Virus record (IMG/VR): IMGVR_UViG_3300044998_000296
Span: 2,476-66,475 of that record
DNA from: a virus
DNA length: 64,000 nt
Strand: one strand, 5' to 3'
Positions 812 through 51,455 of the stretch are shown here, one piece after another (position 1 is the first letter of the stretch; each line of letters starts with the position of its first letter). A model generated the notes under the pieces. That model was given only the letters and a program-made list of their open reading frames with translations, had not been told where the DNA came from and ran no database searches. The position numbers and the translations under genes are program-made.

Positions 812-1954
812 GTGAAAGCAACCACACAATCAGCACCTATCACGGCCCGCGCTTACCCGCTGGCCATCATCAAACAGGCAATCGCAGTCCTCTGGATTGA
901 CGAGCTTAACTTGGTCCCCATTGTTTGGGGACCTCCCGGATGGACCAAATCTGCTACTGTAAACAGCCTTGCGGATGACCTTGGTTTGCCCGTGTTCGAC
1001 CTGCGCCTCTCCGACAAGGAAGCCAGTGACCTCGGAGGCATCCCGTCCCCCACGAATCGGGAATACAACGGGGTCGTGCGCCGCGTTGTCGAATACCTCG
1101 CCAACGCCCGGCTTCCGTGGGCCGACCTATATGGGGAAGACTACCCTTGTGTTCTGTTCTTGGATGAGCTTGACCGGGCATCCCGTTCCGTCTTGAACGT
1201 GGCCCTGCAAGTTCTCTTGGACCGCGGGGTCAACGGGCGGTTTCTCTCCAGGCGGTGCCGTGTGGTCGCGGCTGGCAATGGCTCATCGGATCGGGACACC
1301 ACGCCCCTCAACACGGCGGTCAACACCCGTCTGTGTCACCTTTACGTGGACACGAAGGGACCCGGAGCCTTAGATCACTGGATTGACTGGGCCAATCGTT
1401 CTTCGGTTGACCCCGCCCTTGTTGGCTACGCCCGCTTTCGTCCGGAAATCTTCGGCGGTCCCCGCCACGATTACTTGGAGCAAGCCAGCCCGAACCCCCG
1501 CACCTTTACGTGGGCGGCCAAAGCGGCCAGCGTGCTCGACGATCTAACATTGCCCGTGGAAGTTACAGAAGCGGTGGTCTTGGGATTGGTGGGTCAGGTG
1601 GCGGGGTTGGAATACCTGGCCTATCGGGCAACGCTGATCGACTGCCCGACCTTTGACCAAGTTGTCAAAGACCCCGCCAAGGCCAAGCTTCCTCCCGCTG
1701 ACCAAGTCGGGGTTCTCTATGCCCTTGGCGAGTCCTTCTTGGTCCGCTTGTTCGACCCGGGCAAGGCTGAATCAGGCTGCAAACTATCGCCGGAAATCAA
1801 CCCCGAGCATACCCGTCTGGTGGCCAAGTATTTCCGCCGCTGTGCAACCGAGAATCCAAGCTGCCGGGAAGCCGTGGCCTGGTGGTTCCGTCTTGCCGGG
1901 GAGAAGCTTCCTTCTCTTTGCGGGCTGGAAGATTATGTGTGGGCTGTGCGATAA
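812..1954 (+). CDS. MoxR-like AAA+ ATPase
   Basis: Walker A variant GPPGWTKS, Walker B LFLDELDRA, sensor-1 VVAAGN, and a later NPRT motif. Confidence 0.85.
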   Translation: MKATTQSAPITARAYPLAIIKQAIAVLWIDELNLVPIVWGPPGWTKSATVNSLADDLGLPVFDLRLSDKEASDLGGIPSPTNREYNGVVRRVVEYLANARLPWADLYGEDYPCVLFLDELDRASRSVLNVALQVLLDRGVNGRFLSRRCRVVAAGNGSSDRDTTPLNTAVNTRLCHLYVDTKGPGALDHWIDWANRSSVDPALVGYARFRPEIFGGPRHDYLEQASPNPRTFTWAAKAASVLDDLTLPVEVTEAVVLGLVGQVAGLEYLAYRATLIDCPTFDQVVKDPAKAKLPPADQVGVLYALGESFLVRLFDPGKAESGCKLSPEINPEHTRLVAKYFRRCATENPSCREAVAWWFRLAGEKLPSLCGLEDYVWAVR

Positions 1955-1963
1955 CTGAACCCA

Positions 1964-2001
1964 GCCTCCCCGTTTGTCCAAATCCCGACAAGCGGGGAGG
2001 C
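1964..2001. repeat. Intergenic hairpin, copy of TTGTCC-N-GACAAG palindrome family
   Basis: gcctccccgtttgtccaaatcccgacaagcggggaggc; related palindromes at 60600-60623 and 63588-63611. Confidence 0.75.
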
Positions 2002-2030
2002 ACAACACCAAACCAAACCAAACCAAAGCC

Positions 2031-2342
2031 ATGAAAAATAACGACATTGCAGAAGCGCAGCGTATCGCGGACAGAATTAACGAGTATGTCCGACTTCTTT
2101 TGAACGTTCCGAAAGAAGCTCAACTCACTCCAGGAATTGGGTCGATGACCGGGTGTAAATTTTGCCCTTCCCGCTGTTGTTTTCAAACCTGGATTCCGGC
2201 CAGCTCGGCACGGGCGATCAAAGAGATTAGCTCTTGTTTCAAACAAGCCGGGTTTTTGATTACAAAAAGTCCGGACCAAGCGACTAAGCAATTTATGCAA
2301 ATTGACGCTTGGCCCCCGGGTCTCAATTTTAGCGAACTTTGA
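2031..2342 (+). CDS. hypothetical protein
   Basis: ATG follows an AAACC-repeat leader like the neighbouring genes. Confidence 0.55.
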   Translation: MKNNDIAEAQRIADRINEYVRLLLNVPKEAQLTPGIGSMTGCKFCPSRCCFQTWIPASSARAIKEISSCFKQAGFLITKSPDQATKQFMQIDAWPPGLNFSEL

Positions 2343-2387
2343 AACCCCAAACCAAACCAAACCAAACCAAAGAAAGAACACAAACCT

Positions 2388-2618
2388 ATGAATACACAAA
2401 CCAACAACAGCCAGCACACCCCCGCAGGATTAGACGGCTTCGCCGTAGGGGAGGCCAACGCCCGCCTGATTGCCGCCGCTCCCGAGTTGGCGCAGGCCCT
2501 CAAGGCCCTGACAAAGTGGGGGCGGGACACAACTAGCCCCCGGGACCCAAACAGCCCGCACGCCCTGCTGGTGGCTGCGGTAGATGCCCTGCAAAAAGCC
2601 GGGGTAAGCCTCGACTGA
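2388..2618 (+). CDS. hypothetical phage protein (ANARLIAAAPEL motif)
   Basis: Contains HTP...ANARLIAAAPEL, a common small phage protein motif. Confidence 0.7.
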   Translation: MNTQTNNSQHTPAGLDGFAVGEANARLIAAAPELAQALKALTKWGRDTTSPRDPNSPHALLVAAVDALQKAGVSLD

Positions 2619-2647
2619 ACACAACAACAAGCCAACAGCATAAACCT

Positions 2648-4180
2648 ATGAGCAAACCAACCTTAGATCAGGCTCCCCGGCGCGACGCGCACCTGTCTGC
2701 CGGGGAGAAAATCAGCCAAGCCCTTCGGTGGGTCGGGCGCAAGGAGCCCATTGCGGTTCCGACCGTTCTGACCCGCTGGGAAGTCTTGGAGGACCGCTCC
2801 TGCCCCACTCTCAGCACCAACGGCAAGGTCTTGAAATACAACCCCGACTTCGTGGATCGTCTGAGCTTCAACGCGACCAAGGCCATCGTTCTGCATGAAG
2901 TTGGGCACGTCCTCAGTCAGCACCAACATCGTCGCCAAGGGCGCGACCATCGGGATTACAATATCGCCGCCGATCTGGCTTTGAATTGCCTCTTGAATCG
3001 AGGCTACCGGGCCGCTTTCAACGGAGACTTCGGGGCTCTCTATGCAGAGTTGATTGATCCGTCCGCCTTTGCGTCGGGTTGTTTCGTTGGGGCGGGTTCT
3101 TTTGCGGACCTGCCCCCGAACCTCGACGCGGAAGCCTACTATGAGCTGCTCAAGCAAAAAGCGAGTGAGAAGGAGCAAAACCAAGGACAAAACTTCGGAC
3201 AAAACTTCGGACAAAACTCCGGACAAAACCGAGGCGAAGAAGGCCCGGATTGTAGTGGTGATGGTGGCCGGGACTCTGACCAAGATTGTAGCGGTGAGGG
3301 GCTATACCCCGACCCCGCCCCCGACCAAGTGCCAGACGATGGTCAAGCTTGTGGCGGTAAAGGGCGAGACCGAGGACAAATTTTCGGACAAGGTCACGGT
3401 CCAATCGGCGGGAGTTTCGCTCAACTTTTTGACTGCTCCCCGGCGACCGGGGACATCGAAGACTCACCAACCCCGGAGTCCGAGCATGAAGATGGGCAAT
3501 CCATCCTTCTGGAAACTTTGCTCAACCATGAAGCCGCCGACAAATACAGCCCTCTTGGGCTCGGGGCGATTATTTCGGGAGTCCGCGATCAACTTTTCGG
3601 GGACTACGAACTGGCCGCTGCCATCAACTGGCGGGCCGTGCTTGAAGAGTTTCTGGCCAACGCTCACGCGGGACAACCCAGCTATGAGCGCATCAATCGC
3701 CGCCTGCACAGTCTGGCCGAGTCGCAGGGTATCATCCTTCCGACCGATTACAGTCGCAACAAAACCAACGGTGCGGTGCTGGTTGATACCAGTGGAAGCA
3801 TGGGAGACACGGATTGCGCCCAAGCCTTGGCGCACTTGGGGAAAATCCTCGCCTTGTTTCCCGATTCTACCGTCAACTTGGTCCAGTGCGACACCGAAGT
3901 CCACTGTTCAGAGGAATACACGGGCGGTGATTTTCCTCCGCAGAATTGGGCTGGGTGGTGCGGTCGGGGTGGAACCGACCTTAGCCCGGGCTTCCGTTTC
4001 ATTCGGCAACAGGGGGAATCCTTCGACTGGTGCATCGTCATTACCGACGGGGAGTTCATTCGTGACGGGCTTGTGGACCCCGGAGTTCCAACGCTGTGGG
4101 TTCTAACTCGCCCCGGCTACTGGGCCGACAAACCTTTCCCTTTTGGTCGCGTGGTTTCTATCCGCGCCGCCAAGAATTAA
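2648..4180 (+). CDS. Predicted metallopeptidase + VWA domain protein (DUF2201-like), partner of AAA ATPase
   Basis: HEVGH zincin motif, NIAADLALN, low-complexity linker, VWA MIDAS DTSGSM, GRGGTD and VITDG. Confidence 0.85.
   Translation: MSKPTLDQAPRRDAHLSAGEKISQALRWVGRKEPIAVPTVLTRWEVLEDRSCPTLSTNGKVLKYNPDFVDRLSFNATKAIVLHEVGHVLSQHQHRRQGRDHRDYNIAADLALNCLLNRGYRAAFNGDFGALYAELIDPSAFASGCFVGAGSFADLPPNLDAEAYYELLKQKASEKEQNQGQNFGQNFGQNSGQNRGEEGPDCSGDGGRDSDQDCSGEGLYPDPAPDQVPDDGQACGGKGRDRGQIFGQGHGPIGGSFAQLFDCSPATGDIEDSPTPESEHEDGQSILLETLLNHEAADKYSPLGLGAIISGVRDQLFGDYELAAAINWRAVLEEFLANAHAGQPSYERINRRLHSLAESQGIILPTDYSRNKTNGAVLVDTSGSMGDTDCAQALAHLGKILALFPDSTVNLVQCDTEVHCSEEYTGGDFPPQNWAGWCGRGGTDLSPGFRFIRQQGESFDWCIVITDGEFIRDGLVDPGVPTLWVLTRPGYWADKPFPFGRVVSIRAAKN
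3181..3230 (+). repeat. 12-bp tandem repeat (ggacaaaacttc) encoding GQNF/GQNS
   Basis: About four in-frame units in the linker of the VWA gene. Confidence 0.8.
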
Positions 4181-4205
4181 ACCAACCGACACACACACAG
4201 AAAAT

Positions 4206-4523
4206 ATGACTCTAATGTTAGAAACTGATGCTTATGACCCCACTGAAAAGGGCCGACCTTGGGCCGCCAAGGTCACTTTTGAAACACTCTCCGGAGAGTT
4301 CCATTGGGGCGACTTTGTGGGCAACTGCGGGGAGCCCGGGCTCCGCGTCCTGCCCAACGTGGAGCCCGGGGACATCATCGCCCTCGGTCAAAAAGACTGG
4401 GCCGAGCCTCATCTTGGGCAGCCCACCTTCCATGTCTTGAACAGCGACGGAACCCTCACCCCGTTTCCGGGGCGAAAGGATGCCTACCTATACTGGCTTC
4501 GCACCAACTCAAATCCAAACTAA
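4206..4523 (+). CDS. hypothetical protein
   Basis: ATG after AC-rich leader; 'RPWAAKV...GDIIALGQKD' resembles small phage proteins. Confidence 0.6.
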   Translation: MTLMLETDAYDPTEKGRPWAAKVTFETLSGEFHWGDFVGNCGEPGLRVLPNVEPGDIIALGQKDWAEPHLGQPTFHVLNSDGTLTPFPGRKDAYLYWLRTNSNPN

Positions 4524-4530
4524 AACTCCT

Positions 4531-4743
4531 ATGATAAATCAAATAAAGCGTAACATCCGCCGATACCGGGCCGCCTTGTGCGCCCGACGCCAAGCGACCG
4601 AAGCCTTCCGTCGTCGCCGCGACCTAGCCAGACACCGCTCGGAAGAAATCCAGCGCATTGCCGAGTTGGAACGCCGCGCCCGGGGAGCCAGGCTCTATGC
4701 TGCTTGGTGCTTCCCGGCTATAGAAAAAGGAGGTCGCCTGTGA
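4531..4743 (+). CDS. hypothetical basic protein
   Basis: ctcctATG start; stop overlaps the next GTG. Confidence 0.5.
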   Translation: MINQIKRNIRRYRAALCARRQATEAFRRRRDLARHRSEEIQRIAELERRARGARLYAAWCFPAIEKGGRL

Positions 4744-4925
4744 GCACGCAATTTCTCAACGCCCGAGCCGTCCGCCAGTATGCTTTGGACTACGCCGCCA
4801 AGAACAAGTTCCACAAGTTCGAGCGGGTCAGTCCGGAGTTTGTCACCAAGATCGACGGCATTGTCCGTTCCGCCATAGCCAAAGCGGTTCAGGCACAGCC
4901 TTCCGTTGGTAAAACGATTCGCTAA
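4740..4925 (+). CDS. hypothetical small protein
   Basis: GTGA coupling with the upstream ORF; ends 'PSVGKTIR'. Confidence 0.55.
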   Translation: MSTQFLNARAVRQYALDYAAKNKFHKFERVSPEFVTKIDGIVRSAIAKAVQAQPSVGKTIR

Positions 4926-4931
4926 AAACCT

Positions 4932-5477
4932 ATGCCCGATTGCACATCTTTCCCAGTTAAGGCCCCGCCCTTCCCCGAGGTTCGTTTGTCGGCTGCGCCC
5001 CTGTTCCCCGGCTACGAGTATTCCTTGTGGCTTCGGTCTGGGGGCCAACCCTACGCTCTTTTTTACGCTCCTGATGGTCGGCGGTTGAATCCGTTGCCCG
5101 GGGGCACGGCTATTCCATGGCCTCCGTATTCCGAGTGTTCTTTGGTTTTACGGAAACGGTTTCGCGGGGCTGCCGACCGAGCCCTAGTTGAACTGCAAAA
5201 ATTATTGAACGCTCAGCGGAGTTCGGTGTCATACCTTCAACCTCACCTTCAACCCCTAATCCCAACTAAAAATATGCCCAATAAACTTTACTTCGACCAC
5301 GAGATAAAAGCCCTGGAACGCGCCCGTTACTGGTCCGCGTTTTTGAGTGGGGCTCTCGTTGCCGCGACTTTGTGCCTGCTGCTGGTGTTTGCTTACGCCT
5401 TCTGCTATGCCACCAAGCAGACGCACCCATTCATCCAAGCCCAGGAGGAGAGCCAAGGGCGGCGCGTTGCTTTTTAA
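4932..5477 (+). CDS. hypothetical protein with C-terminal transmembrane segment
   Basis: aacctATG start; hydrophobic stretch AFLSGALVAATLCLLLVFAYAF; a second start at about 5274 is possible. Confidence 0.45.
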   Translation: MPDCTSFPVKAPPFPEVRLSAAPLFPGYEYSLWLRSGGQPYALFYAPDGRRLNPLPGGTAIPWPPYSECSLVLRKRFRGAADRALVELQKLLNAQRSSVSYLQPHLQPLIPTKNMPNKLYFDHEIKALERARYWSAFLSGALVAATLCLLLVFAYAFCYATKQTHPFIQAQEESQGRRVAF

Positions 5478-5499
5478 CGCGGTCACACCCATAAAACCT

Positions 5500-5700
5500 A
5501 TGAAAAACACAGAACGGGCTGGGATTGGCTCGATGCCAGTATTCTCAGTTATACTTCCCGATGGCCGTAAAATTTGCGGCCTAACTAGGCATGAGGCCGT
5601 AACGGGGTTGGCGTGGCTGCCAACGGGCTCCCGAATTGATCCTCCAATTCCTCCATGTAACCCCGCCGCCCTGAATTTGCTTGACGCACTATGCAAATGA
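5500..5700 (+). CDS. hypothetical protein
   Basis: aaacctATG start typical of this genome. Confidence 0.45.
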   Translation: MKNTERAGIGSMPVFSVILPDGRKICGLTRHEAVTGLAWLPTGSRIDPPIPPCNPAALNLLDALCK

Positions 5701-5732
5701 TAGGACGCCTGCCCAGCTTGCGGAAATACTCC

Positions 5733-5831
5733 GCAGAACGCACAAGTTGACCTATGACTACCGCGCCAACAGACTCCGCAATCACTGAAACCGCCGACGC
5801 GGTGGGCATTAGGTCCAGCGACTTGTTCGCC
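5733..5831 (-). mobile_element. attC-like recombination site A1 (complete)
   Basis: + strand: gcagAAC|gcacaa|gttgacc|tatgactaccgcg ... cgcggtgggcatta|ggtccagc|gactt|GTTcgcc; 7/8-bp L boxes, 6/5-nt spacers, extrahelical bases. Confidence 0.8.
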
Positions 5832-6410
5832 ATTTCTCGGGTGTGGTGTATGCCGTCGCCTCTGACCTTCTCGATGAAGCCAATCCGCGCCTTCGTGGAA
5901 CGCTGGCTCCGTCCGGTGTCGGTGGACTGCTTTGCCCGGGACTGCCAACTGGCAGACATCACGAACGACCTGAACCCCGCGACCAAGGCAATGCACCACA
6001 TGGACGTGCTCGACTTCGCGGAATGGCTGGGCCGCGAAGGAGTCCGCCCGTCCTGCATCTTGTTCGATCCGCCATATAGCCCGCGCCAGGCGGCAGACTG
6101 CTATGAGGCGGCAGGGGTGGACCCGAAAACGCTGGACGCCGTGAAACGCCGGAAGGGAAACGCATGGCAAAGGACTAAGAACTGGAAGGAGGAACGCGAT
6201 GCGTTGGCCCGGATACAAGGGCCGGGTGACGTGGTGCTGTCCTTCGGGTGGGATTCCTGCGGGATGGGCAAGAAGCGCGGATACGAACTGGCGGAGGTGC
6301 TGCTGGTCTGTCACGGAGCCTGCCACAACGATACGATCTGCATTGCGGAAAGGCGCGTTGCAGATATGGCGAACGACCAAGGTCAGCCACGGCGGGAGGA
6401 AAACCTATGA
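5754..6410 (+). CDS. DNA amino-methyltransferase (N6-adenine type), cassette-borne
   Basis: Motif I-like VSVDCFA, catalytic FDPPYS, and C-terminal HG..HNDTI. Starts inside site A1 and stops inside site A2. Confidence 0.8.
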   Translation: MTTAPTDSAITETADAVGIRSSDLFAISRVWCMPSPLTFSMKPIRAFVERWLRPVSVDCFARDCQLADITNDLNPATKAMHHMDVLDFAEWLGREGVRPSCILFDPPYSPRQAADCYEAAGVDPKTLDAVKRRKGNAWQRTKNWKEERDALARIQGPGDVVLSFGWDSCGMGKKRGYELAEVLLVCHGACHNDTICIAERRVADMANDQGQPRREENL

Positions 6411-6459
6411 AAATCAAAAGTGACGCGATCCCGCCGTTGGATGCACCGCCTTGTTCGGA
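6368..6459 (-). mobile_element. attC-like site A2 (complete)
   Basis: ggcgAAC|gaccaa|ggtcagc|cacggcggga ... tcccgccgttg|gatgcacc|gcctt|GTTcgga; loop holds an ATGA stop/start overlap at 6407-6410. Confidence 0.8.
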
Positions 6460-6491
6460 ATCTTCTTCGACGGACCACCGAGGAATCCTTG

Positions 6492-6590
6492 TCGGAAACA
6501 GGGGTCAGGTATCGGCACCCGCAAGCGGTGCGCCCGATTCTAACCCAGCGCGCGGTGCGGGTGACGATTAGCTGGACTGGCTTGTTAGCT
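6492..6590 (-). mobile_element. attC-like site A3 (left end degenerate)
   Basis: ggtcagg|tatcggcacccgca ... tgcgggtgacgatta|gctggact|ggctt|GTTagct; AAC is not at the canonical distance on the left. Confidence 0.65.
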
Positions 6591-6598
6591 GAATTTTT

Positions 6599-6814
6599 AT
6601 GGAAACAACGATGAAACTAAAAATCCGAAAAGGCCAGCGCATGTTGGTCAAATGGCGCGATGACTGCGGAAAAATTCACATCCGGGAAGGGATTGTGGTG
6701 GATTGCGAGCGGGATTTTGTAAAAATCGAACACCGATTTTTCGGAATCCTCCGCTGGAGCAGATGGTATCCTATGAAAGATGATCGCCACAATGCAGAGA
6801 TTATTTTCAGCTAA
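6599..6814 (+). CDS. hypothetical small beta-rich protein, cassette-borne
   Basis: Lies between A3 and A4; its TAA is part of the agcTAAc box. Confidence 0.6.
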   Translation: METTMKLKIRKGQRMLVKWRDDCGKIHIREGIVVDCERDFVKIEHRFFGILRWSRWYPMKDDRHNAEIIFS

Positions 6815-6838
6815 CGTCCGCGATCACGGGCCGCTAGG
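6809..6838 (-). mobile_element. attC-like half-site A4 (left arm only)
   Basis: agctAAC|gtccgc|gatcacg, similar to the left arm at 50286; no partner arm downstream. Confidence 0.55.
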
Positions 6839-6858
6839 AGCGAAGAAAGTATACGAAA

Positions 6859-7152
6859 ATGGATAAGTTCAAATGTCAAGAATGTGGAAAGGTATTCGAT
6901 CCCGACCCCGCTGCAATGGTGGAAGTCGAAATAAGTCCCGACCTCGTGCTCGAAAATGAGGCGGATGAAATGGCGGATGCGGGCAAGTGCCTGACCGAAG
7001 ATGATCTAAGAAACGCGGAGGCCGAACAGCTGCAAGCTTGGGGGCTGAGCGAAAAAGATCGTGACGCAATGCTCAGTGGTGAAGGTGTTGTAATAGGAGG
7101 CATGTGCATATGCTTGGAATGTCAAGATAGGCTCGCGGAGGAACAATCATGA
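6859..7152 (+). CDS. hypothetical acidic protein with two CxxC motifs
   Basis: FKCQECGK ... ICLEC; ends just before site A5. Confidence 0.65.
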   Translation: MDKFKCQECGKVFDPDPAAMVEVEISPDLVLENEADEMADAGKCLTEDDLRNAEAEQLQAWGLSEKDRDAMLSGEGVVIGGMCICLECQDRLAEEQS

Positions 7153-7156
7153 TTTT

Positions 7157-7278
7157 TCCGAACGGCCAAGTCACCGAATCCCGCCCGTGATCGCGCTGCG
7201 CTGCAATGTTGACGGACGAAAAACCCCGCCGGTGCGAGCACGCGGCGGGGCGGGATTCGGTGGACTGGATTGTTGGCC
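7157..7278 (-). mobile_element. attC-like site A5 (complete)
   Basis: tccgAAC|ggcca|agtcacc|gaatcccgccc ... gggcgggattc|ggtggact|ggatt|GTTggcc. Confidence 0.8.
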
Positions 7279-7279
7279 G

Positions 7280-7624
7280 TTACGCTCTATCCGAGCAAAA
7301 TTTGTGGTGCGCGGCAAACGCCCGGCTCCGCTCGACCCATCCTGCAACATATTTGACCGCCGCCGGAGTATTCCCCTGAGCATAACTGTTACCCGAGCGG
7401 GTTTGGCCGTCCTGAATATAAAAAACGACATGGGCAAATTTGGTGCCGCGCTGCCAGACCTGCGAGTAAATCCGGTTAGCGATGCATGTCTCCTCGACCA
7501 TGGTGATTGGCATTTCAGGCCGCCCGCCCAACGCTCCGTTTTTGCGAGCGGCGGCGGCTTTGGCTGGGGTGGTGATGCTGCCGAGCGTGGCGGCAGCCTG
7601 ACTTGTGGTGTTTGTGGTGCTCAT
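7280..7624 (-). CDS. hypothetical protein (K..AAR.NG..GGRP motif), only reverse gene in the array
   Basis: MSTTNTTSQAAATLGSITTPAKAAAARKNGALGGRP; TAA abuts site A5. Confidence 0.65.
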   Translation of the reverse strand: MSTTNTTSQAAATLGSITTPAKAAAARKNGALGGRPEMPITMVEETCIANRIYSQVWQRGTKFAHVVFYIQDGQTRSGNSYAQGNTPAAVKYVAGWVERSRAFAAHHKFCSDRA

Positions 7625-7633
7625 TGCGCAATC

Positions 7634-7661
7634 AAAATAACCCAACGCTGGGATATGTCAA
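7634..7661 (-). promoter_or_regulatory. sigma70-like promoter for the reverse cassette gene
   Basis: TTGACA-16 nt-TATTTT on the - strand, 9 nt before ATG; spacer holds the near-palindrome cccaacgctggg. Confidence 0.55.
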
Positions 7662-7695
7662 CAGAAAAAATGCAGGGGAACAAAATTATTTATTC

Positions 7696-7793
7696 GATCA
7701 ACGCCCAAGGTGAGGCACAGCCTCCCGCCAAAAAGCTATGAACAAACCAAAAGACCTAACGGGAGGCTGTTGTCCTCCACCGATTTGTTCAAA
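7696..7793 (-). mobile_element. attC-like site A6 (complete)
   Basis: gatcAAC|gcccaa|ggtgagg|cacagcctcccg ... cgggaggctgttgt|cctccacc|gattt|GTTcaaa; ATGA in loop at 7738-7741. Confidence 0.8.
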
Positions 7794-8006
7794 GGATTTT
7801 GTGATGCCATTTGGGAAACCACCCACGTAAATGGATACTATCACCCATCTCAGCAACGATGCGTGATCTGCGGAGAATATCGGCACAAGATTTATTGCTC
7901 GCAGTGGCCCCGATGGAGAAAGGGCAAGCACCCTGCAAGCGAAGGCTGCGGGACATATTCTTCTGCGAACGTAAAAGCCACCAGTTCCGCCCCAACTACT
8001 ACTTGA
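7710..8006 (+). CDS. hypothetical Cys-containing protein, possibly degenerate
   Basis: CVICGE motif; runs from A6 into A7. The loop ATG at 7738 is out of frame with it, so the start is uncertain. Confidence 0.4.
   Translation: MRHSLPPKSYEQTKRPNGRLLSSTDLFKGFCDAIWETTHVNGYYHPSQQRCVICGEYRHKIYCSQWPRWRKGKHPASEGCGTYSSANVKATSSAPTTT
7964..7995 (-). mobile_element. attC-like half-site A7 (left arm only)
   Basis: tgcgAAC|gtaaaa|gccacca; upstream ORF reads through AAC as Asn as at other sites; no right arm seen. Confidence 0.45.
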
Positions 8007-8072
8007 ATACTAAAATGGACACAATTAGTAAATCAGACTCGACCGAAACGGAGCGCAAGCAAATTGAGACAT

Positions 8073-8762
8073 TTAACTAAGCGGCGACGGGTTATAAGGA
8101 AAAAGCGAAGGGTCAGTTTTTCTCCAGCACCACTCGGGAAACTCTTCTGCTCCGATCCCTTGTTCCCTTTCAACCAAGTTTAAGGCCTCCTCGGTGATCC
8201 AAACTTTGGTCCGCAAGTTGCATCCGCAACGGTCGCAGCTATGCAATCGGGGATCGGCTGAGGTTTCCAACCCTCCTTGCACGGCTCGGAACAAAGCTCC
8301 CAGTTCTCCACATCCCCAACAGTTGCCGATGGGGACATTGTGGGGACATTGCGAACAGATGGCCGCTCGCCGCTCGGCTTCTTCTCGACTTACGCAAACC
8401 GGGTTCCCCTTGCCCAGTTCCCCGGCAACCACGCGCACCGCTTTCCCAAAATTGATTAAGTCCCTCGGTCCTCGCCGCCAATCGCGCAGGGCCGGGGGAT
8501 TTTTTGCGTCGTCCGCGGACAAGAACTCACAACGTTCGCTGTGCTCCCCCAGTCCTCGTTGTTCCAAGGCTCGGCAGATTTGTTCTTCGACCAAGCGGCG
8601 CAAGTTCGGCGGCACTTCCAGTCCGTTGGCATAGCGATACTGCTCTACTTGGGAGATCAACCCTTTGAACGTAGCCCCCCGAACTATCTGTCCATCTTCC
8701 TGCACAGCTTCCCATCCACGCCTCGGGACTAGCGAAGGGTCTTTGAGTTTCCGCGTGGGCAT
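8073..8762 (-). CDS. Cys-rich hypothetical protein, last gene of late operon
   Basis: RAAICSQCPHN, CWGC, CDRCGCNL...CW motifs. Confidence 0.75.
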   Translation of the reverse strand: MPTRKLKDPSLVPRRGWEAVQEDGQIVRGATFKGLISQVEQYRYANGLEVPPNLRRLVEEQICRALEQRGLGEHSERCEFLSADDAKNPPALRDWRRGPRDLINFGKAVRVVAGELGKGNPVCVSREEAERRAAICSQCPHNVPIGNCWGCGELGALFRAVQGGLETSADPRLHSCDRCGCNLRTKVWITEEALNLVEREQGIGAEEFPEWCWRKTDPSLFPYNPSPLS

Positions 8763-8775
8763 CGGGCGTCAAATT

Positions 8776-11700
8776 TTAGTCCTCTAACGCGGCCTTTTCC
8801 CAGTGCCAGCGGTCTCTGGTTTTGATTGCCCGTGACTTGTTCCCCCGGGACACCCCCATTTCGTCCTCCATTTGGCTCCAGGCAATCTGGGCCGCAGCCG
8901 TGCCAAACTTCCCGAGGATTTCTTTGGCAATCTCGCGTTGCATAGGTCCGTCTTTGGCCAGCTCGGTCAGGTAGCGGACTTGGTCCGGGTCTAAAAATTC
9001 GCGCATGGTCTCGCCGTAGAGTTCATTATAGCGGCGGGTTTCTTCGGGCTTGGCTGGGCGGACCCCCATTCGGGTAGAATCATCCGCGATGACTTCCCGG
9101 CGCGGGGGTGGGACGACCAACCCGGCTTCCGCTAAAGGCCCCAAGATCGGGTGGAAGTTGGTTGTCGAGAAGAACCGTCCGAAGAGAATGTCCTCGGTGC
9201 GAAGTTCCACAGGTTCGGCCAGAACATTGATGGCGGGTTTGTTGGCCAGCATTTGACCCATAGGCAAAGCCGCCATAGTGGCTGCTAAAGGGCCTGAGGT
9301 CGAATCGTAGCGTTGTTTGGAGACTAGCTCTTCGACCATCTTCGTCATCCCCGGGTTGAGGAATGGTCCCACGGCACTTCGGTATTGATTAAGCAGCAAG
9401 CGTCCCCCTTCTTCGGTTTCTCCTTTCGAGTAAGCCGATACGGTTTCCAGCATATTGAACAAGCCGCTCATCATTTCACGGTCCAGCAGCAAGGCCGCCC
9501 CGCTAAGGAAGCCCCCTCCCCAGATTGCCGCCGCCTCGTTGGGTTCGTAATCCCCGTAGAGAACTTTGTCTGAAATAGCCCCGGCAAAGGTCAGGGCCAG
9601 CGAAACCCCTGGAAGGTCCTTGTAAGGAATCCAGACAGCCGAGTCACCGAAACCAATACGGATATGCTGCGGCTTGAAAATCCCGGCTTCGCGCAAGGCT
9701 CGGCGGGTGCGCAGGTCTTGATGGCCTTCCCCGTAAATCCTAATGAAAGGCTCGCGTCCTTCCTCCCGGTCTCGAAAAGCCGCTGCTACCAAGGCCGCCA
9801 AGGCTCCCCATACGGCGGTTCCTGCCGCTGCCCGCACCAAGGCCGCGTAGTATTCCGGGCTGCCCTTTTCGTAGGTCTGGAAGTTCTCGGCAAATTGTTT
9901 GAACCCGGGGAGAGCTTTGGCCAAAGCGGACGATAGGGTTCCTTGGCCTCCCCGCAAAGCCCGGACAAATCCATAAGGGCCGAACTCCAGCCCGTAGTTT
10001 AACAGGTTCGACAGCGTCCGCATGAAGCTTCCATACTGTGCGCCTGCCGGACCCCCGAAGCCGAGAGCCAATTTTCCCCACGACATGGCCAGCAATCCGA
10101 GAACTCCGTAGGCTTCCCCGTTGAAGGTTGCCTTGGCTGCAAAGTCCCGGACCAAGACTTCGTTGGCGTGGCCTCCGAGAAGCTCACGCTCGACGAGTTG
10201 TTCCAAACGGCGGGAGCGCAAGACCCGGTGCGACGGAGTTCCTTTGATTCCAAATTGCCCCTCGGCATCTTCGTTTGCCACTACTTGCTTGGCCTGTTCC
10301 ACGATTGCCGCCATAACCTCCTCGGTTAGTTTGGGCTGCGTCCCGAGAGCCTCGGCAGTTCTGCGAATCAGCAGCATCTTGGTGCTGGCTCCAATCCCGC
10401 TGTTGATCGCGTCGGAAGCCATCATAAAGCGGGCAACCAGCTTGCGTCCGGCCAGGTAATTATCGCGCAACCGGGCCAAGTCTTTTGCCGCCAATGATCC
10501 TTTGCCTTGCAGGGCATGGACCAAAGCCAGCGTAGGATTGCGGAACTTCGACAGCTCGTAGCTTGCGAGCATCTGGACCCCGGCTCCGGCTATGCCCGGT
10601 AATCCTTTAGTCTGCAAAGCATCCATGAAGTTTTCCCCGGCTTGAGCCACGGCGGGTTCAAAGGTGAACGCTTCCAGCTCAGGCAGGGTTTCTAGCTTGT
10701 CGGTCTTAAAGCGAGACATCCCTTTGCCCACTGCCGACCAAGTTTCATCAAAGGCGCGACGGCTTGACCCATCCAAGTTCTTTCCAAAGGCCCGTCTCAG
10801 CCCGCCAACAATGTCCCCGAACGCCCCGTAAGCCTGCGCCCCCGGGACTCCCTGCCGCTGCATATACAAAGCGTGGCCCGCAGCAGAAAAGGCCGACTCC
10901 ATCTGCACTGCGGCAAACGAAGCTATGGCGTTGACCCCTTGAGTGCGGAGCCCCTGCAACACCCCGGCTTGCCAGACCAGCCCACTGATCTTCCACCAGC
11001 GAAACGCTTTGGAGAATCCCTTGGTTTCATCGAAGTGGGCCTTGAAAATTTTGAGCATCAATCGTTGCTCGGCTTCCCCTCGCTGAATCGAATTGTCCGA
11101 GAGAGCTTGCAAAGCCTGCGCGTCTCGCTCGATTTCGTCCGCTGTTTCCTTGTTGTAAGTGGGCAGTCCGTAGAAGGGAGCTAGCGCATTGTAAACGTCG
11201 GGCTTCTGGAAAGCCCCCATGTTGATGATCCCAAGCAGACGGTCCATGGTTTGCCGATGGGCCAAGACCTTGCGAAGCTCGATAGCTTTCTCGTCATTAC
11301 GTTTGGCAATGTCCCGGACCATCCGAGCCAACCCGGCTTCCGCTGCCTTGGAGACTTCATCCCGGTAAACCGCCACGGCAGCCGCAGCAATCTTGTCGCG
11401 TTGTTCTTGGCTGAGATGCGGGGCGGCGATGGCCAGATTGTTGGCAAAACTTTTCTCGGTCATTTCGCGGCTTTGCAAAGAGCGGCGGACTTCCTCCGTC
11501 AAGATCACGTTATGCAGCACGGCCTTGCGCAGTTTCTTGGCTCCTTCGGTATCAAAAATGTAGTCCGGATTCCATAGGCTCCGGTCGTTGACAAAGAGAC
11601 CGCTGTAAGGAGTGTCGGCATCGTTGCCTTCCATCAATACGTGGTCGAAGATGATCTTGGAAATTTCCATGATCGAGTCGGGGGCGGCCTCATCGGCTAC

Positions 11701-14700
11701 CTCGGCCCATAGAGCCAGAGCTTTTTGCATGTCAGACTGGGCAGACCCCTCGGCCTCGGCCCGTGCTTCCACCCGGCCACCTTGCAGCCGGGCTTCCAAG
11801 ACTCCATTGATCTGTCGTTGAGCCAGAGCCCGAGCCCGTTCTTCCACTGATCTCAAGGCGCGTTCTTTGGCGGCGGTATTCGGCACGGCTTCAAATTTAC
11901 GCAGCAGGTTATCGAAGACCTGAGCCACAATGACTTCCGTGGCGTGTTCCACGATTTGCACGTTAGTCATCCCCGCCTTTGCATCGGACAAAGCTTTGGA
12001 CAGGGCCGAGTTGGCTCGCACGCCTCGTTCGCTGGCCGTCTTGGGCAGGAAGCGACGGCTGGCCATTTCGATGACTCGGAGCATCCGCTCGTAAGTATTC
12101 CGGCTACCCGTGTCGTGGGCTCGTTCCAACTCGCCCATGATTTCTTTGACGGCTGGTTTGGCTCCCAGCGTTTCCGCTTGTCCTTTGATGGCCGGGTTCG
12201 TGTATTGCCGTCTCCAAGTGATCGGGTCAAAGAGATGCGAGACCATGCGGACATAGTTTAGCTCACTTCCCGCCATGCTGGACAGTTCGGCAAGCTGCGC
12301 GAGCATGGACGAAAGCGTTTCGTTGTAGAGATCGGCCAACATTTGTGCGCTGGCCCGGTCGGATTGGCTCAAAGAACTATCGGCGGCGTTGGCCAAAGCT
12401 TGAACGCGGCGGCTGGCTTCTTTGACTCGTTTAACGATATGCCCCAACGTAACAACTCGGTCGCCTCCGGTGAAACTGTGCTCCTGCATAGCTGCACGGA
12501 ACAGGGTATCATAGGAGAGGGGATCATCGGACGCCAGGGTTGGGTGAGCCTTGAAGTAGTCTTCGATGTAAGCGGTGGCGCGTTCGTTGATCGCGGCTTG
12601 CGTGTCCGGGATATACTGCACCGTATCCAAAGCTTTGGTGACGGGTTCCCATTCAGGCAGCGAGCGCAGGCGAGAGAACGCCGTGGTATTCTTGGCTGCC
12701 GCCCGATTGTAAAGGGTTGCCGTGGAAGCCGGGAACTGCGCTTGCACGGGTGCGCTGAAACGAATGTCGTTGCTATTCGAGTTAAACCGCTGCGAAAGCG
12801 GGATGACGTTGCCTTGCTCGTCGTAGGTTACAGGGTCGGGCAGTTTAACTCGCACGCTTTCACCGTTCGGTAAGACTGCTGAGACCGATCCTGCATCCTC
12901 GCCTTCGTTGATGTAGAACGCGCCTTTTTTACGCTTAATTTTACGATTTGCAGCATTATCAGAGATCGGGGAATTCCTTGTGTTGGTCATGCCTCCAACA
13001 ATTAGGACAGGACGCAACCAAGGTTTCCATTTAGGATTTACCAATACGCCATTCCCAAGGGTCGGCATTTTCTTTGGATAATAGTTTTCCGATGGAGCAT
13101 CCACGTTGTATCCAGTAAGTCGATATTTTCCAAATTTCCCCGTATTGATCAATTCTTTACCGGCCAGCAAAGTATCCCCATATTCCCGAGTTCCGTCCCA
13201 CCCCCTACCGTCCGCAGGTATTCCAATTCGAGCTTCCAGAGCCTCCATAGCCGCTTGCTTCGTCCCGACATGAAGCCCTGTTACCCCTCCCCGCAAGTCT
13301 CCGCTTGGAGTTCCATGCCAAAATGCGCCGATTGCCGCCAGTTTTTCATCCACCATGCGCTGCAACTCCTCGCGGTTTGCTTCGGGGTCTTTGGCAAGCT
13401 CAAGATAGCGAGCGTCTTGAGAGGTCTTTGCGCTCGCGCTGTATTGTAGAATCGGGGCATCCTTGTCCAAGGTGCGTTGATCGTCCGTAAGCTTGGTGAA
13501 CGCCTCCACCACGGCTTCCCCCGTAATCGCTTCATACAAGGAAGCCTCGTAAGAGTTTGCCAGGACAGGGGGAGCCGAACGGCTGAAACGAATGTCGTTG
13601 CTATCCGAGTTAAACCGCTGCGAAAGCGGGATGACGTTGCCTTGCTCGTCGTAGGTAACAGGATCGGCCAACTTTGCTTGCGATGATTTGAAAAAAACAA
13701 ACACGTCGCTTGGCGTATCATCGTCCATAGCGTCACGAGTGTTTTCCATAATAACTCCATCGTGGCCGCCAGCTATTGCTTCCTGTATTAGCTCTGAATA
13801 GCTTTTATCTTTGAAAGAACCCCCCTCGTAATCGTAAATTAAAGGGTTTTCGAACTTCAAATACAAATCGTGAACCACGCTTGACTTGAGTTTTTCTTGT
13901 CGAGCTTTTTCATATTTGGCAAGAACTTCGTCTAACTGCTTTTGGGCTTCTTCTATTTTGGCATCTTTTTCAGCTTGAGCTGCTTCAAGAGCATCCTCTT
14001 CATCCTCAAACACGGTTTCTTTTTTGCCAGTTTCATAGGGGTCATAGGGATCGGCTTCCCATTCATACGGTGATCCCCATTCATCATACGCTTTCAGTTT
14101 TCCAACAAACCCATTTTGTTCTGGATCAAACTCGGCAAACACTTCAATAGCCTCCGCTAATTCAAGTGCCCTTTCTGCATTTTCTAAGTTAAACCCAAGC
14201 GGACCAGTGTATCCAGCGTTGGCTTTTTCCCTCGCTGTCATACGGTATTGTTCGGCAACCTCTTTTTTGTTGGTTGCAAAAAAACCAAGCAATGCGGAAT
14301 TCGCGCCTGTTCTTTCTCCTTTTCTAAGAGGATCAAAAACCCAAAATGGTTTGTTAGGAGAGCCGTGATATGCTTTTTCAGTGTATCCAGCTCTTTTCGC
14401 CGTCGCATCCACCATGCGCTGCAACTCCTCGCGGTTTGCTTCGGGGTCTTTGGCAAGCTCAAGATAGCGAGCGTCTTTCGGCGTTGCTACGCTCGCGCTG
14501 AGACGAATGTCGTTGCTACCTTCATTTGCCCATTGCGACGGAGGAATCAAGTTGCCGTTCTCGTCGCGGTTAAGCGGCTCGGCGGATTTGATTTGGTTGG
14601 GGTTGAAAACGGCATAGACCGTTGCTGGTCCGCCAAAGTCAAACATATTGGTGAACTTCACAAAGGACTTGCCTTCGCGTTTTGCACGGGAAATCACGCT

Positions 14701-43357: not shown

Positions 43358-44533
43358 GTGAGCACAATACTCGAAAAAATCACCCAAGCTGTCAATGCCC
43401 GCGAAAGCATCACCTTGCGAGTGGGTCGCCAAAAAATCGGCCTTTACTGCGCTGAAAGATCGGGCAACCCCTACTGGACGCTGTCTTGGTATGAAGGAGC
43501 CCAGCGTTGTCGAAAAACGGCGACAGAACCCGCCAAAGCTATCCGCATGACGGAAGCCGTCGCGGAATCTGTGGCCACCGTAGGTCGGGCAACTCCCTCA
43601 GTTTTAGGCCAACCCAGCGAAGTGGCTTCCATCCCGCTAAACGAACTGTTGGAGTTTTACAAAAAGCACCATCCCGATTTGAAGGAAACCTTCAACGCCC
43701 CAACGGTTTCGGAAATCCGAGACGAGTTTCTGTCCGCCGCAAAAAACGCGGGGCGAAGCCAACGCCATCTGCAAAGCCTACGGGCGCATCTCAACAAGTT
43801 TTGCCTAGCCTGCCCCAAGAAAATTTCTCAAATTAGTGTTGAAGATATTAACCCTTTTCTCCAACAATTCGCGGCCCTGAAAACCCGGCTCAATTATCGC
43901 ATCACCCTGATCTCCTTTTTCCGATTTGCTCAAAGACGCGGATTTCTGCCTACTGACCGCTTGACTGCCGCCGAACTTAGCGACAAACCATCCGTGCGCC
44001 CAACCGAGCCCGAAGTGTTTACCTCCGAAGAATTTGCCCGCCTCTTAAAACATTGCGACAACAAAAAAATCCGGGCCTTTTTAGTGTTCGGTGGACTGTG
44101 TGGTCTGCGGTCTGCGGAGATCGCCCGCCTAAGATGGGAAAACGTCCGCGAAGACCACATCATCTTGGGGGCGGCGATAACCAAGACAGCCCGCCGCAGA
44201 GTAGCCGAGATTCCCGGGAACGCGGCGGCTTGGTTGGAGGCTTTGAGGGAAACAAGCGGTCCGGTGTCCTATCTATCCCCAAACCAACTTTACAAAAAAC
44301 TCGACGCATTGGCCGAAGCTGCCGGAGTTTCCTGGAAACCGAACGCTCTGAGACACAGCTTCGCCAGCTACCATTTAGAATTTCACCGGGACCCGCCCCG
44401 GACATCCAAGACAGCGGGACACAGCCTACGAATGTTGGAGACCGTTTACGCGAAATTGGTTTCCCGAAACGACGCCATTGCGTGGTTCTCGATCTTCCCC
44501 ATCCAGCAACAAAATACAAGCCGAAATCTATGA
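43358..44533 (+). CDS. int: tyrosine integrase
   Basis: GLRSAEIARL (R), KT (K), NALRHSFASY, AGHS and VYA catalytic pattern. Confidence 0.9.
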   Translation: MSTILEKITQAVNARESITLRVGRQKIGLYCAERSGNPYWTLSWYEGAQRCRKTATEPAKAIRMTEAVAESVATVGRATPSVLGQPSEVASIPLNELLEFYKKHHPDLKETFNAPTVSEIRDEFLSAAKNAGRSQRHLQSLRAHLNKFCLACPKKISQISVEDINPFLQQFAALKTRLNYRITLISFFRFAQRRGFLPTDRLTAAELSDKPSVRPTEPEVFTSEEFARLLKHCDNKKIRAFLVFGGLCGLRSAEIARLRWENVREDHIILGAAITKTARRRVAEIPGNAAAWLEALRETSGPVSYLSPNQLYKKLDALAEAAGVSWKPNALRHSFASYHLEFHRDPPRTSKTAGHSLRMLETVYAKLVSRNDAIAWFSIFPIQQQNTSRNL

Positions 44534-49931: not shown

Positions 49932-49960
49932 ACAATAAACCAGACGCAATAATAGCAGAG

Positions 49961-49993
49961 GGTGGGGCTGTTCGCTCCAGTGACTTGTTCGGC
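49961..49993 (-). mobile_element. attC-like half-site B1 (right arm only)
   Basis: gctgttc|gctccagt|gactt|GTTcggc; close to the A1 right arm, and both translate RSSDLF. Confidence 0.6.
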
Positions 49994-50111: not shown

Positions 50112-50303
50112 ATGAATCTAAACTACCCACCTGAACACTGGCACATCGGGATGCGTGGGAAGATTGATTACCCCGGAACCTCGCTGCACGGGAAAGAAGC
50201 CATGATTGAAAGGTTCTACAATGGCGAGGTCTTACTCTCATACGATCTAGGAAAAACTACTAGGATTTGGCATAGATGCTTTGTCCCGAAACGTCCGCGA
50301 TGA
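50112..50303 (+). CDS. small hypothetical protein
   Basis: GGAGG RBS; stop falls inside site B2. Confidence 0.55.
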   Translation: MNLNYPPEHWHIGMRGKIDYPGTSLHGKEAMIERFYNGEVLLSYDLGKTTRIWHRCFVPKRPR

Positions 50304-50387
50304 CCGGCAGCTACCCGCTGCATCACGGCCCGAAACCAAATCCGACGAGAACAGCGGGTAGCTGTTCGGTCGATCACTTTGTTCGCA
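50286..50387 (-). mobile_element. attC-like site B2 (complete)
   Basis: ccgaAAC|gtccgc|gatgacc|ggcagctacccgctg ... cagcgggtagctgttc|ggtcgatc|acttt|GTTcgca. Confidence 0.8.
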
Positions 50388-50394
50388 TAATTTT

Positions 50395-50919
50395 ATGATT
50401 GAGATAACAAAATCCGCCACCGCAGACACACGGACCTGCGCCTTTGCCAACACCACCAAGGAAACACTCCTCGCTTCAAGCCGCGCCCACATCAAGGACG
50501 TGGTGAAGGCAATGGCGTTCTTCATCGGAAAGCTCACGGAAGCTGCTGGGGAACACGACTACGACAAGCTGACCTCCATCGACTGGTTCCACGAAGACTT
50601 CGTGACGGGCTTCCAGCAAACTGGATGGTGGGACAACCACCGGAAAATCCATCGCCACCACCTCGCGCAAGACGACGGTGTGCCGGAAGACGTGAACCTG
50701 TTGGACGTGCTCGAATACATCGCCGATTGTGTCATGGCGGGGATGGCCCGCAGCGGGAGTGTCTATGACCTGGTGATGCCGCCCGAGCTTTTGGCACTCG
50801 CATTTAAGAACACGGTCGAACTGCTCAAGTCGGAAGTCATGGTTTCTGCTGCGAACGTCCGTGATGACCGACACCTAGCCGCTGGCGCGGCGGGTGCCAG
50901 CAAGGAGGACAACCAATGA
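50395..50919 (+). CDS. HD-like (DUF5662-like) protein, cassette-borne
   Basis: H..DV, HDYDK, H...RHH, LDVLEYIAD motifs; C-terminus runs through site B3. Confidence 0.65.
   Translation: MIEITKSATADTRTCAFANTTKETLLASSRAHIKDVVKAMAFFIGKLTEAAGEHDYDKLTSIDWFHEDFVTGFQQTGWWDNHRKIHRHHLAQDDGVPEDVNLLDVLEYIADCVMAGMARSGSVYDLVMPPELLALAFKNTVELLKSEVMVSAANVRDDRHLAAGAAGASKEDNQ
50850..50880 (-). mobile_element. attC-like half-site B3 (left arm only)
   Basis: tgcgAAC|gtccgt|gatgacc; tgcgaac is the exact complement of the B2 end gttcgca. Confidence 0.6.
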
Positions 50920-51455
50920 ACCAAAAAACGCAAAAAGATTACGAGAAGGCGTATTATGACGTTGCTGATGCGCTTTGCAGAGAGTCAACAGGGACAGAAG
51001 ATTTGTGCCGACAGGCTAGGCAACTACGCAAAGACCTAGCTGAAGCCCGTCGCATAGCCGAAGCCTACCGATATGTTTGGCAAGTAGTTTCAGCCGCCGT
51101 GGATACATGCCCAAACACCGATCCTCAACCGCTTTGTTTGGCGTTAATGGAGCTACAGGAGGCCATAAATGACTTTTCGACCATACGCAGCGGCCCCGGC
51201 GCATGTAGTGGCTACATTGATGACATGGCCAGGGCAAAAACACGCCTCACGCGGGCAGCAGAGATATTGGCTGACTCGTTATACAAGGCCCAGAAGCGGC
51301 GGGCTCAAGGAGCATCTACCCGCGAAATGATGCACGAGATTTATAATTCGCCGAACGCACAAGCTGACCGACAGCTACATCACGAACGAATGGCCGCTTG
51401 TGGCCAACAGGATCACGCAGAAACCAACTATGAAACAAAACCCTTCACACGTTAA
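50916..51455 (+). CDS. hypothetical helical protein
   Basis: AGGAGG RBS and ATGA overlap; runs through site B4. Confidence 0.6.
   Translation: MNQKTQKDYEKAYYDVADALCRESTGTEDLCRQARQLRKDLAEARRIAEAYRYVWQVVSAAVDTCPNTDPQPLCLALMELQEAINDFSTIRSGPGACSGYIDDMARAKTRLTRAAEILADSLYKAQKRRAQGASTREMMHEIYNSPNAQADRQLHHERMAACGQQDHAETNYETKPFTR
51350..51380 (-). mobile_element. attC-like half-site B4 (left arm only)
   Basis: gccgAAC|gcacaa|gctgacc, nearly identical to the A1 left arm gaac|gcacaa|gttgacc. Confidence 0.6.

Follow-up and report, generated by a model that had tools for sequence, protein, structure and literature searches.

Probable integron-type attC sites of a Planctomycetota subtype form integrase-less clusters at gene junctions in a phage genome

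We analysed a 64,000-nucleotide stretch of viral DNA, referred to below as the window (bases 2476–66475 of the 66,475-base virus record IMGVR_UViG_3300044998_000296, completeness rating about 90%), in which structured elements resembling the attC sites of integrons lie among small genes. The record carries phage-type replication genes, and the elements form two clusters, at 5.7–7.8 kb and 49.9–51.4 kb. The first cluster holds the sites s1 to s5 together with a DNA methyltransferase gene, which starts with an ATG in the s1 loop and ends with a TGA that overlaps an ATG in the s2 loop, and three further small genes (Table 1). An original prediction, made from the letters of the window alone, had read this region as an integron-like gene-cassette array; the four complete sites and the degenerate one that it listed are all present at the positions given, on the + strand, and its interpretation of them as integron-type attC sites is supported. 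With five sites within 2.1 kb and no integron integrase (IntI) in the record, the cluster falls under the definition of a cluster of attC sites lacking an integrase (CALIN), that is, at least two nearby attC sites with no IntI near, as used by Qi et al. 2023 (PMC9892861; this and the other articles cited here were drawn on in part). We consider it probable that both clusters are CALINs made of attC sites of a Planctomycetota chromosomal-integron subtype, whose units would be exchanged by a host IntI.

The evidence begins with the structure of the sites themselves. We searched with three covariance models, one built from the six window sites (the window model), one from 86 viral sites only (the viral model) and one from 31 attC sites, 30 of them distinct, of three real integrons from Vibrio, Shewanella and class 1 (the integron model). 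The window sites are 92–122 nt long and keep a left outer box of (C)GAAC, G, one base and CCAAG, and a right outer box of A, C, one base, G, two bases and TTGTT, in which AAC and GTT do not vary, while their inner stems vary in sequence with pairing retained, as had been predicted. When the six sites are aligned, the inner helix comprises 16 pairs, 10 of them with compensatory changes, and 85% of cells are paired; of 500 shuffles, none attained either the observed pairing or the observed covariation score. Site s4 is an inverted repeat with the longest stem among the sites (15 perfect pairs), and folds of the window sites as single-stranded DNA give modest z-scores, from −1.5 to −3.7 on the + strand. 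The extra base described earlier on the 3′ arm is present, and the spacer after AAC, put at 5–6 nt in the original prediction, measures 6–7 nt. Sites s2 and s3 are separated by 32 nt, leaving an AAC-to-AAC unit of about 124 nt without a gene; the open reading frame (ORF) at 6407–6571, which crosses s3, is not coding-like (−0.10 bits per codon). The window model made no further match at E<0.05 in the 64-kb window. Lone left arms had been predicted at 6809 and 7964: the first has a weak counterpart, whereas none was detected at 7964 by nhmmer with the family profile, and a half site at 50852 was not significant in the same search.

Table 1 Sites, site remnants and genes of the two clusters, with the integrase of the phage (positions in the window)
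Feature	Position	Strand	Evidence
attC-type site s1	5733..5831	+	Viral model 72.9 bits; integron model 32.6 bits, E 3.8e-5; both arms pair in fold
attC-type site s2	6368..6459	+	Viral model 74.5 bits; integron model 33.1 bits, E 2.9e-5
Degenerate attC-type site s3	6492..6590	+	Viral model 39.6 bits; no integron-model match at E<=1
attC-type site s4	7157..7278	+	Viral model 45.7 bits; integron model 16.3 bits, E 0.22; fold z-score −3.7
attC-type site s5	7696..7793	+	Viral model 73.4 bits; integron model 36.3 bits, E 5.5e-6
attC-type site s6, within replication-gene block	50286..50387	+	Viral model 57.8 bits; integron model 32.2 bits, E 4.8e-5
Possible left-arm remnant, weak	6810..6841	+	nhmmer family profile positions 2–31, E 0.38
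Right-arm remnant, second cluster	49951..49993	+	nhmmer family profile positions 56–98, E 4.7e-6; window model 15.1 bits, E 0.073
Left-arm remnant, marginal, in 3′ end of ORF 50916–51455	51350..51384	+	nhmmer family profile positions 1–34, E 0.021
DNA methyltransferase gene	5754..6410	+	phrog_11619, E 3.4e-35, residues 35–206; codon score +0.21 bits per codon
71-aa cassette gene	6599..6814	+	Codon score +0.19; no Pfam or PHROG match
97-aa cassette gene, two Cys-x-x-Cys pairs	6859..7152	+	Codon score +0.18; faint PHROG match only
121-aa gene, stop abuts s4	7280..7645	−	Codon score +0.18 vs −0.06 for overlapping + frame 7187–7741
Tyrosine integrase of the phage, not an integron integrase	43358..44533	+	phrog_1 integrase, E 6.7e-38; TIGR02249 21.7 bits, cut-off 265

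Other identities for the elements were considered and rejected. The copies differ along their whole stems, which speaks against a miniature transposable element; intrinsic terminators were dismissed for want of a T run, with one terminator-like match against 4.3 expected; and the right arms are translated in differing frames, which does not fit conserved peptide tails. No Rfam family reached its gathering score in the window, where positions 5500–8200 gave two chance-level small nucleolar RNA matches (E>4).

Sites of the same kind recur in other viral genomes. An exact-pattern scan of viral contigs gave 48 loci, in which the window model then made 90 matches at E<=0.01, mostly in arrays, and the viral family analysed here comprises 86 sites (E<1e-4) from 22 sources of this one narrow pattern scan. 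Upon realignment 95.9% of cells are paired, compared with 65% in shuffles and 25–38% with slid partners, and there are 419 double changes with a covariation score of 0.63 against 0.15 in shuffles, in an alignment whose fitting to the model is itself a bias toward pairing. AAC is present in 85–86 of the 86 sites and GTT in every one, within a consensus, GCCGAAC/GTTCGGC, that is complementary across 7 nt; the outer four positions, unmodelled as pairs, nevertheless pair in 55–77% of the sites. On each side about six conserved positions form an unpaired spacer, and the family alignment adds a second single-base bulge to the one predicted, both lying in the 3′ arm of the + strand and the second being a T in 72 of the 86 sites. 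Near-identical stretches of 10–13 nt are common to the arms of the family.

We retrieved five virus records in full, of which four have terminal repeats and an estimated completeness of 100%. They contain 30, 11, 11, 6 and 3 sites, co-oriented within each cluster and 86–168 nt long with fixed arms, and phage replication, terminase-like and virion proteins are present in two of the five. A search found no protein common to all array-bearing phages, and few are shared with the phage of the window or between one another. Relatives sought among viral contigs through single proteins (methyltransferase, DUF2201 protein and DNA polymerase) turned out few and distant, and no sites were found in them (best score 13.6 bits, E 0.24). 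Short arm patterns, with mismatches allowed, showed no excess over shuffled sequence, and blastn of window positions 4000–9000 against deposited phages gave no match.

Covariance models of the phage sites and of attC sites from established integrons each detect sites of the other group. We ran the viral model on records named as carrying true integrons (PMC9892861, Table 1). In the Vibrio phage integron MK672802 it made 15 matches at E<0.01, every one of them inside the cassette array, downstream of an annotated integron integrase and opposite the gene strand; the best match elsewhere had E 0.26. Shewanella M16-3 (MZ568829) gave 14 matches at E<=1, 13 of them in the integron array or a CALIN and again opposite the genes, and the class 1 array of MH445380 gave five (24.6–45.2 bits) opposite the cassette-gene strand, four of which lie 2–15 nt past the stops of aadA1, cmlA1, aadA2 and a small psp-like ORF; the remaining one, which scores lowest (24.6 bits), sits between two genes. 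The covariance models score a single strand of the sites, and because their matches run opposite the genes in three real integrons, the + strand of the window corresponds to the bottom strand. In the reverse direction, the integron model with filters off made five matches at E<=1 in the 64-kb window, all at known sites and all on the + strand, four of them at 32–36 bits; this stand-in for a general attC model found only sites of the original prediction plus s6, which gives provisional covariance-model support of the kind that the prediction had proposed as a check. With default filters it recovered 19 sites in four of five Planctomycetota stretches and none in the fifth, and every default-filter match coincides with a site of the viral model or of the nhmmer family profile. 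Like classical attC sites (class 1, Vibrio and Shewanella), the phage sites have an R box with AAC/GTT, an unpaired spacer, a bulged stem, a variable loop and strand polarity, and the models of the two groups detect each other's sites both ways; they differ in their consensus, in the modest cross scores (16–45 bits) and in being without cross-detection by sequence alone. An unpaired central spacer between the R and L boxes is a described feature of attC (Cury et al. 2016).

The subtype to which the sites belong is found in bacterial integrons. The same pattern run over species genomes picked out at least 120 stretches, of which we tested the 80 listed ones with the viral model. Sites were found in 23 of those 80, and 20 of the 23 are Planctomycetota by record title (two genera checked); the remaining three are a Gemmatimonadota metagenome-assembled genome, a 1.1-kb contig binned to Actinomycetes and a contig binned to Akkermansia. 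Planctomycetota genomes hold about a hundred such sites, a lower bound from one narrow pattern scan. IntI (TIGR02249) exceeded the curated cut-off in three of five such genomes searched: in Zavarzinella formosa sites lie on both sides of intI (456 bits), within about 350 nt, and in a Gemmataceae metagenome-assembled genome the first of them is found some 900 nt downstream of intI (441 bits). As these arrays adjoin genuine intI genes, the subtype is a bona fide integron attC type. The chromosomal integrons of Planctomycetota, such as that of Z. formosa DSM 19928, carry it at 29–74 bits in the viral model.

Several features of the bacterial arrays were observed in passing. Near intI in Z. formosa the sites recur every ~240 nt (L215, 544–2900; L092, 5270–7584), the bodies between them are about 150 nt long and mutually alike (59–73% at the protein level), and intI runs along the cassette top strand. 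Planctomycete-type sites on contigs binned to other phyla (L150, L098 and L121) could reflect mis-binning or transfer; L150, binned to Akkermansia muciniphila, has three sites in 1.9 kb. An 8-kb Pirellulales stretch (L144) has 13 sites by the viral model and none by the integron model, with its gammaproteobacterial and class 1 training, under default filters, and contains several duplicated cassette bodies at 69–85% identity.

Phage arrays differ from those of Planctomycetota in having no true IntI beside them and in the orientation of their genes. Taking the longest open frame per strand between neighbouring sites, we found it opposite the sites in 41 of 72 bacterial intervals (9 on the site strand, 22 ambiguous) and in 15 of 21 intervals of known integrons (2 and 4), whereas viral arrays have 6 of 59 intervals opposite the sites, 18 on the site strand and 35 ambiguous. 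In the window, the methyltransferase, 71-aa and 97-aa genes are on the bottom-strand side and depart from the canonical gene cassette, in which a top-strand gene is followed at its 3′ end by attC; the gene at 7280–7645 (−) has that form and is the sole window cassette in the usual integron orientation. This gene, together with the filling of Planctomycetota arrays by the same site subtype, is what might be expected if the cluster were part of a host chromosomal integron that the phage had captured passively and that served it no purpose. We regard passive capture as very improbable, since the side opposite to that of bacterial cassettes is occupied by three of the four cassette genes of the window and by most genes of other phage arrays, with starts and stops inside the sites, the cargo is phage-typical, comparison of the fetched viral and bacterial sets revealed no common cassette body at E<1e-6, and arrays recur in several unrelated phage records.

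The phage sites also coincide with junctions between genes. A site was counted as having the junction layout when a frame that stops within it and an ORF whose ATG lies within it, both on the site strand, were each 40 or more codons long. This was the case at 58 of 83 sites in viral loci (21 of 83 on the opposite strand) and at 43 of 60 in the five whole phage records (12 of 60), compared with just 19 of 88 in bacterial contigs (12 of 88) and 0 of 25 for the known integrons (2 of 25). Eleven genes of one 41.6-kb phage are chained in this manner through eleven sites, often with an ATGA overlap. Loops of the phage sites are A-rich after the ATG. An explanation built on this layout is that the hairpins descend from attC but act only in mRNA, where translation of the upstream gene would melt the stem and make the ribosome-binding site and ATG of the loop accessible. 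The outcome would be obligatory translational coupling or control of message stability, with no recombination. This explanation draws on the constant co-orientation of sites with local genes, so that the mRNA has the same hairpin, on the joint presence of stop and ATG in about 70% of sites in phages, a share that falls to 22% in bacteria and to 0% in known integrons, on the A-rich loops, and on reports that attC stem-loops in mRNA hinder downstream translation and ribosome progress unless they are translated (PMC8876359). We nevertheless think a purely RNA-level role unlikely: the features read by IntI, the AAC/GTT ends and the two one-arm bulges, are near invariant in unrelated phages and a coupling device needs neither, and cassette-sized segments common to unlike phages end at AAC.

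These shared segments emerged from a blastn comparison among 17 viral loci and the five genomes, in which phage contigs otherwise unlike one another proved to share three stretches the size of a cassette. The first (763 bp, 94.5% identity) runs from TAAC at the 5′ end of a site to just past GCTAAC and equals one AAC-to-AAC unit, the second (309 bp, 86%) stops at GAACG of the next site and the third (238 bp, 84%) stops at GCCGAAC. AAC therefore marks the gene-3′ end of all three segments, and two also begin beside an AAC; breakpoints at AAC boxes, which the original prediction had proposed to look for, are present in related phage arrays but not for the window itself. A different route to such segments would be general phage or host recombination between the conserved arms, serving as short homology patches with no site-specific enzyme, as proposed for T4-type cassettes (PMC2839356). 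The near-identical arms and that precedent speak for it, as does the lack, in array-bearing phage records fetched whole, of a tyrosine recombinase detectable by the IntI profile. It accounts poorly for segments that consistently end at AAC, would not select a bulged, strand-asymmetric hairpin with compensatory changes and leaves the likeness to real attC sites unexplained, and we judge it improbable.

DNA-modification families were the only recurrent annotated cargo in a scan of 49 ORFs, made up of 43 of the 49 listed array ORFs and six window ORFs. N6_N4_Mtase was matched by three members, MT-A70 by two, C-5 methylase by one and Mom by one, in counts where one member may match several families, and the methyltransferase of the window is a further case. 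Five methyltransferases have been reported in phage cassettes (PMC9892861).

Under the explanation that we favour, recombination of the phage attC sites by an enzyme from the host, each site folds as a single strand with a terminal R box (AAC paired with GTT), unpaired spacers of about 6 nt, a stem with two 3′-arm bulges and a variable loop. The + strand, which bears the bulges, corresponds to the recombinogenic bottom strand, and a host-supplied integron integrase would cut the AAC of the 5′ arm between AA and C. Units running from one AAC to the next would be exchanged, and small accessory genes thereby gained, lost and reordered. The sites double as gene junctions: the loop accommodates the stop of the preceding gene, a ribosome-binding site and the ATG of the following gene, and the arms are translated. 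Each unit would then consist of a short 3′ tail and stop for the gene upstream, its own ribosome-binding site, its own ATG and a gene body completed by codons of the unit after it. Placing the start codon in the loop would avoid the block that an attC hairpin imposes on translation. We infer that the host is a planctomycete and that its IntI acts on the phage sites, and the cargo may serve counter-defence. If host IntI does act, phages would use a host gene-shuffling enzyme to diversify counter-defence, cassettes would flow among unrelated phages, and transcription would expose the recombinogenic strand.

A number of results weigh against this explanation. No integron integrase was found in the 66,475-base record, as had been predicted (best TIGR02249 score 21.7 bits against a cut-off of 265), nor in 10 other array-bearing virus records. 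The R-box consensus of the family differs at one position from the canonical RYYYAAC/GTTRRRY quoted in PMC9892861, and in the window's own six sites the outer box pairs reliably only at AAC/GTT and poorly beyond. The integron model misses s3, gives s4 at just E 0.22 and, with default filters, detects 13 of the 61 sites of five phage genomes. Because the viral model was used to align the training sites of the integron model, the two tests partly depend on each other. No window site was found with profiles built on sequence alone, from either a MAFFT or a model-made alignment of true attC sites, which places the likeness in structure, polarity and short boxes, as is described for attC (Cury et al. 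2016). When one conserved phage protein was searched for in 301 Planctomycetota genomes, a single weak match (4.1e-11) emerged; the host is unconfirmed, and this search is uninformative about it either way.

The record of exchange contributes to the same side of the balance. Of the shared segments, the third has its start at the 3′ arm (CGCCTTGTTCGG) and not at AAC, which fits exchange through arm homology better than cutting by IntI. The window's own genes have no shared cassette in other fetched arrays and no recombination product was seen; tblastn of the window cassette proteins against all fetched loci returned just site-encoded ends and one distant methyltransferase. The runs that hold the stretch come from one sample, labelled hot spring or microbial mat and possibly the source of this DNA, and three contig joints found there (5829 to 6221, 5829 to 7159 and 7282 to 7536) have ambiguous intervening sequence. 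Contigs of this sample, which are not independent of the source, resemble the window at a single site each and differ from it in the flanks; the start of one coincides exactly with the AAC of s2. We take these site-only contigs and joints as a hint of related arrays and not as excision products.

Integrons are regarded as bacterial devices. Here attC architecture recurs in phage genomes without the integron integrase, in arrays that are large and whose orientation and junction layout are unlike those of bacterial arrays. Phage attC clusters without an integrase have already been reported, in 17 phages, and IntI1 recombined five of six phage sites tested (Qi et al. 2023, PMC9892861); because of that report, the novelty implied by the title of the original prediction is reduced. 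The published clusters resemble the present arrays in having no IntI, in DNA methyltransferase cargo and in the proposal that host IntI acts in trans. They have as few as two sites, with bacterial-type gene orientation in TJE1 and PH101, whereas in the present arrays a genome has up to 30 sites, the genes occupy the bottom-strand side and their starts and stops fall in loops. The viral model made no match at E<=0.1 in the published virulent-phage CALIN records TJE1, P12002L and H101 (NC_019930, NC_028924 and NC_029094), indicating that those belong to other site types. The arrays are a variant of the published concept in which the planctomycete-type family, array sizes, reversed polarity and junction layout seem new: a literature search, with the supplement of PMC9892861 outside the comparison, found no report of large attC arrays in uncultivated phages or of bottom-strand cassette genes starting in the loop.

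T4-type promoter-stem-loop cassettes reportedly carry early promoters, are thought to act through homology and have no attC geometry. Like the present arrays, they consist of structured elements that recur among small accessory phage genes, and a part in modular shuffling has been ascribed to them (PMC2839356). Chromosomal integron arrays have recently been proposed as stores of anti-phage defence cassettes (bioRxiv 10.1101/2024.07.02.601686). As a tentative extension, which we consider possible but hold with less conviction than the attC reading itself, Planctomycetota phages may keep a counterpart to this host store, a mirror-image pool of their own cassettes with genes on the recombinogenic strand and attC sites as translated junctions, from which host IntI would shuffle counter-defence genes among unrelated phages. 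With 86 sites in viral contigs and about 100 in Planctomycetota genomes, the family is big enough for these ideas to be tested.

The integrase of the phage itself is a tyrosine integrase of phage type, in line with the original prediction, to which it looked like an ordinary phage Int, and scores far under the TIGR02249 cut-off; the tRNA-type attP that had been paired with it was not confirmed, and no tRNA gene was found in the window or the whole record. Around the opposite-strand gene at 7280–7645 we noted a promoter-like site just upstream (TTGACA-16-TATTTT, 7661–7634, −) and a small terminator-like hairpin on the − strand inside the s4 loop, each in counts not above chance. One contig (run X3, depth 3.3) skips 253 nt (7282–7536) within this gene and may represent a variant allele in the community. 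Elsewhere in the window, a single 4502-aa ORF at 8776–22284 (−) occupies about a fifth of the genome, and a 109-residue stretch of it is 32% identical to a sequence in another array-bearing phage (G003). Just upstream of the array, positions 812–4180 (+) encode an AAA/MoxR-like ATPase followed by a DUF2201 metallopeptidase-plus-VWA protein.

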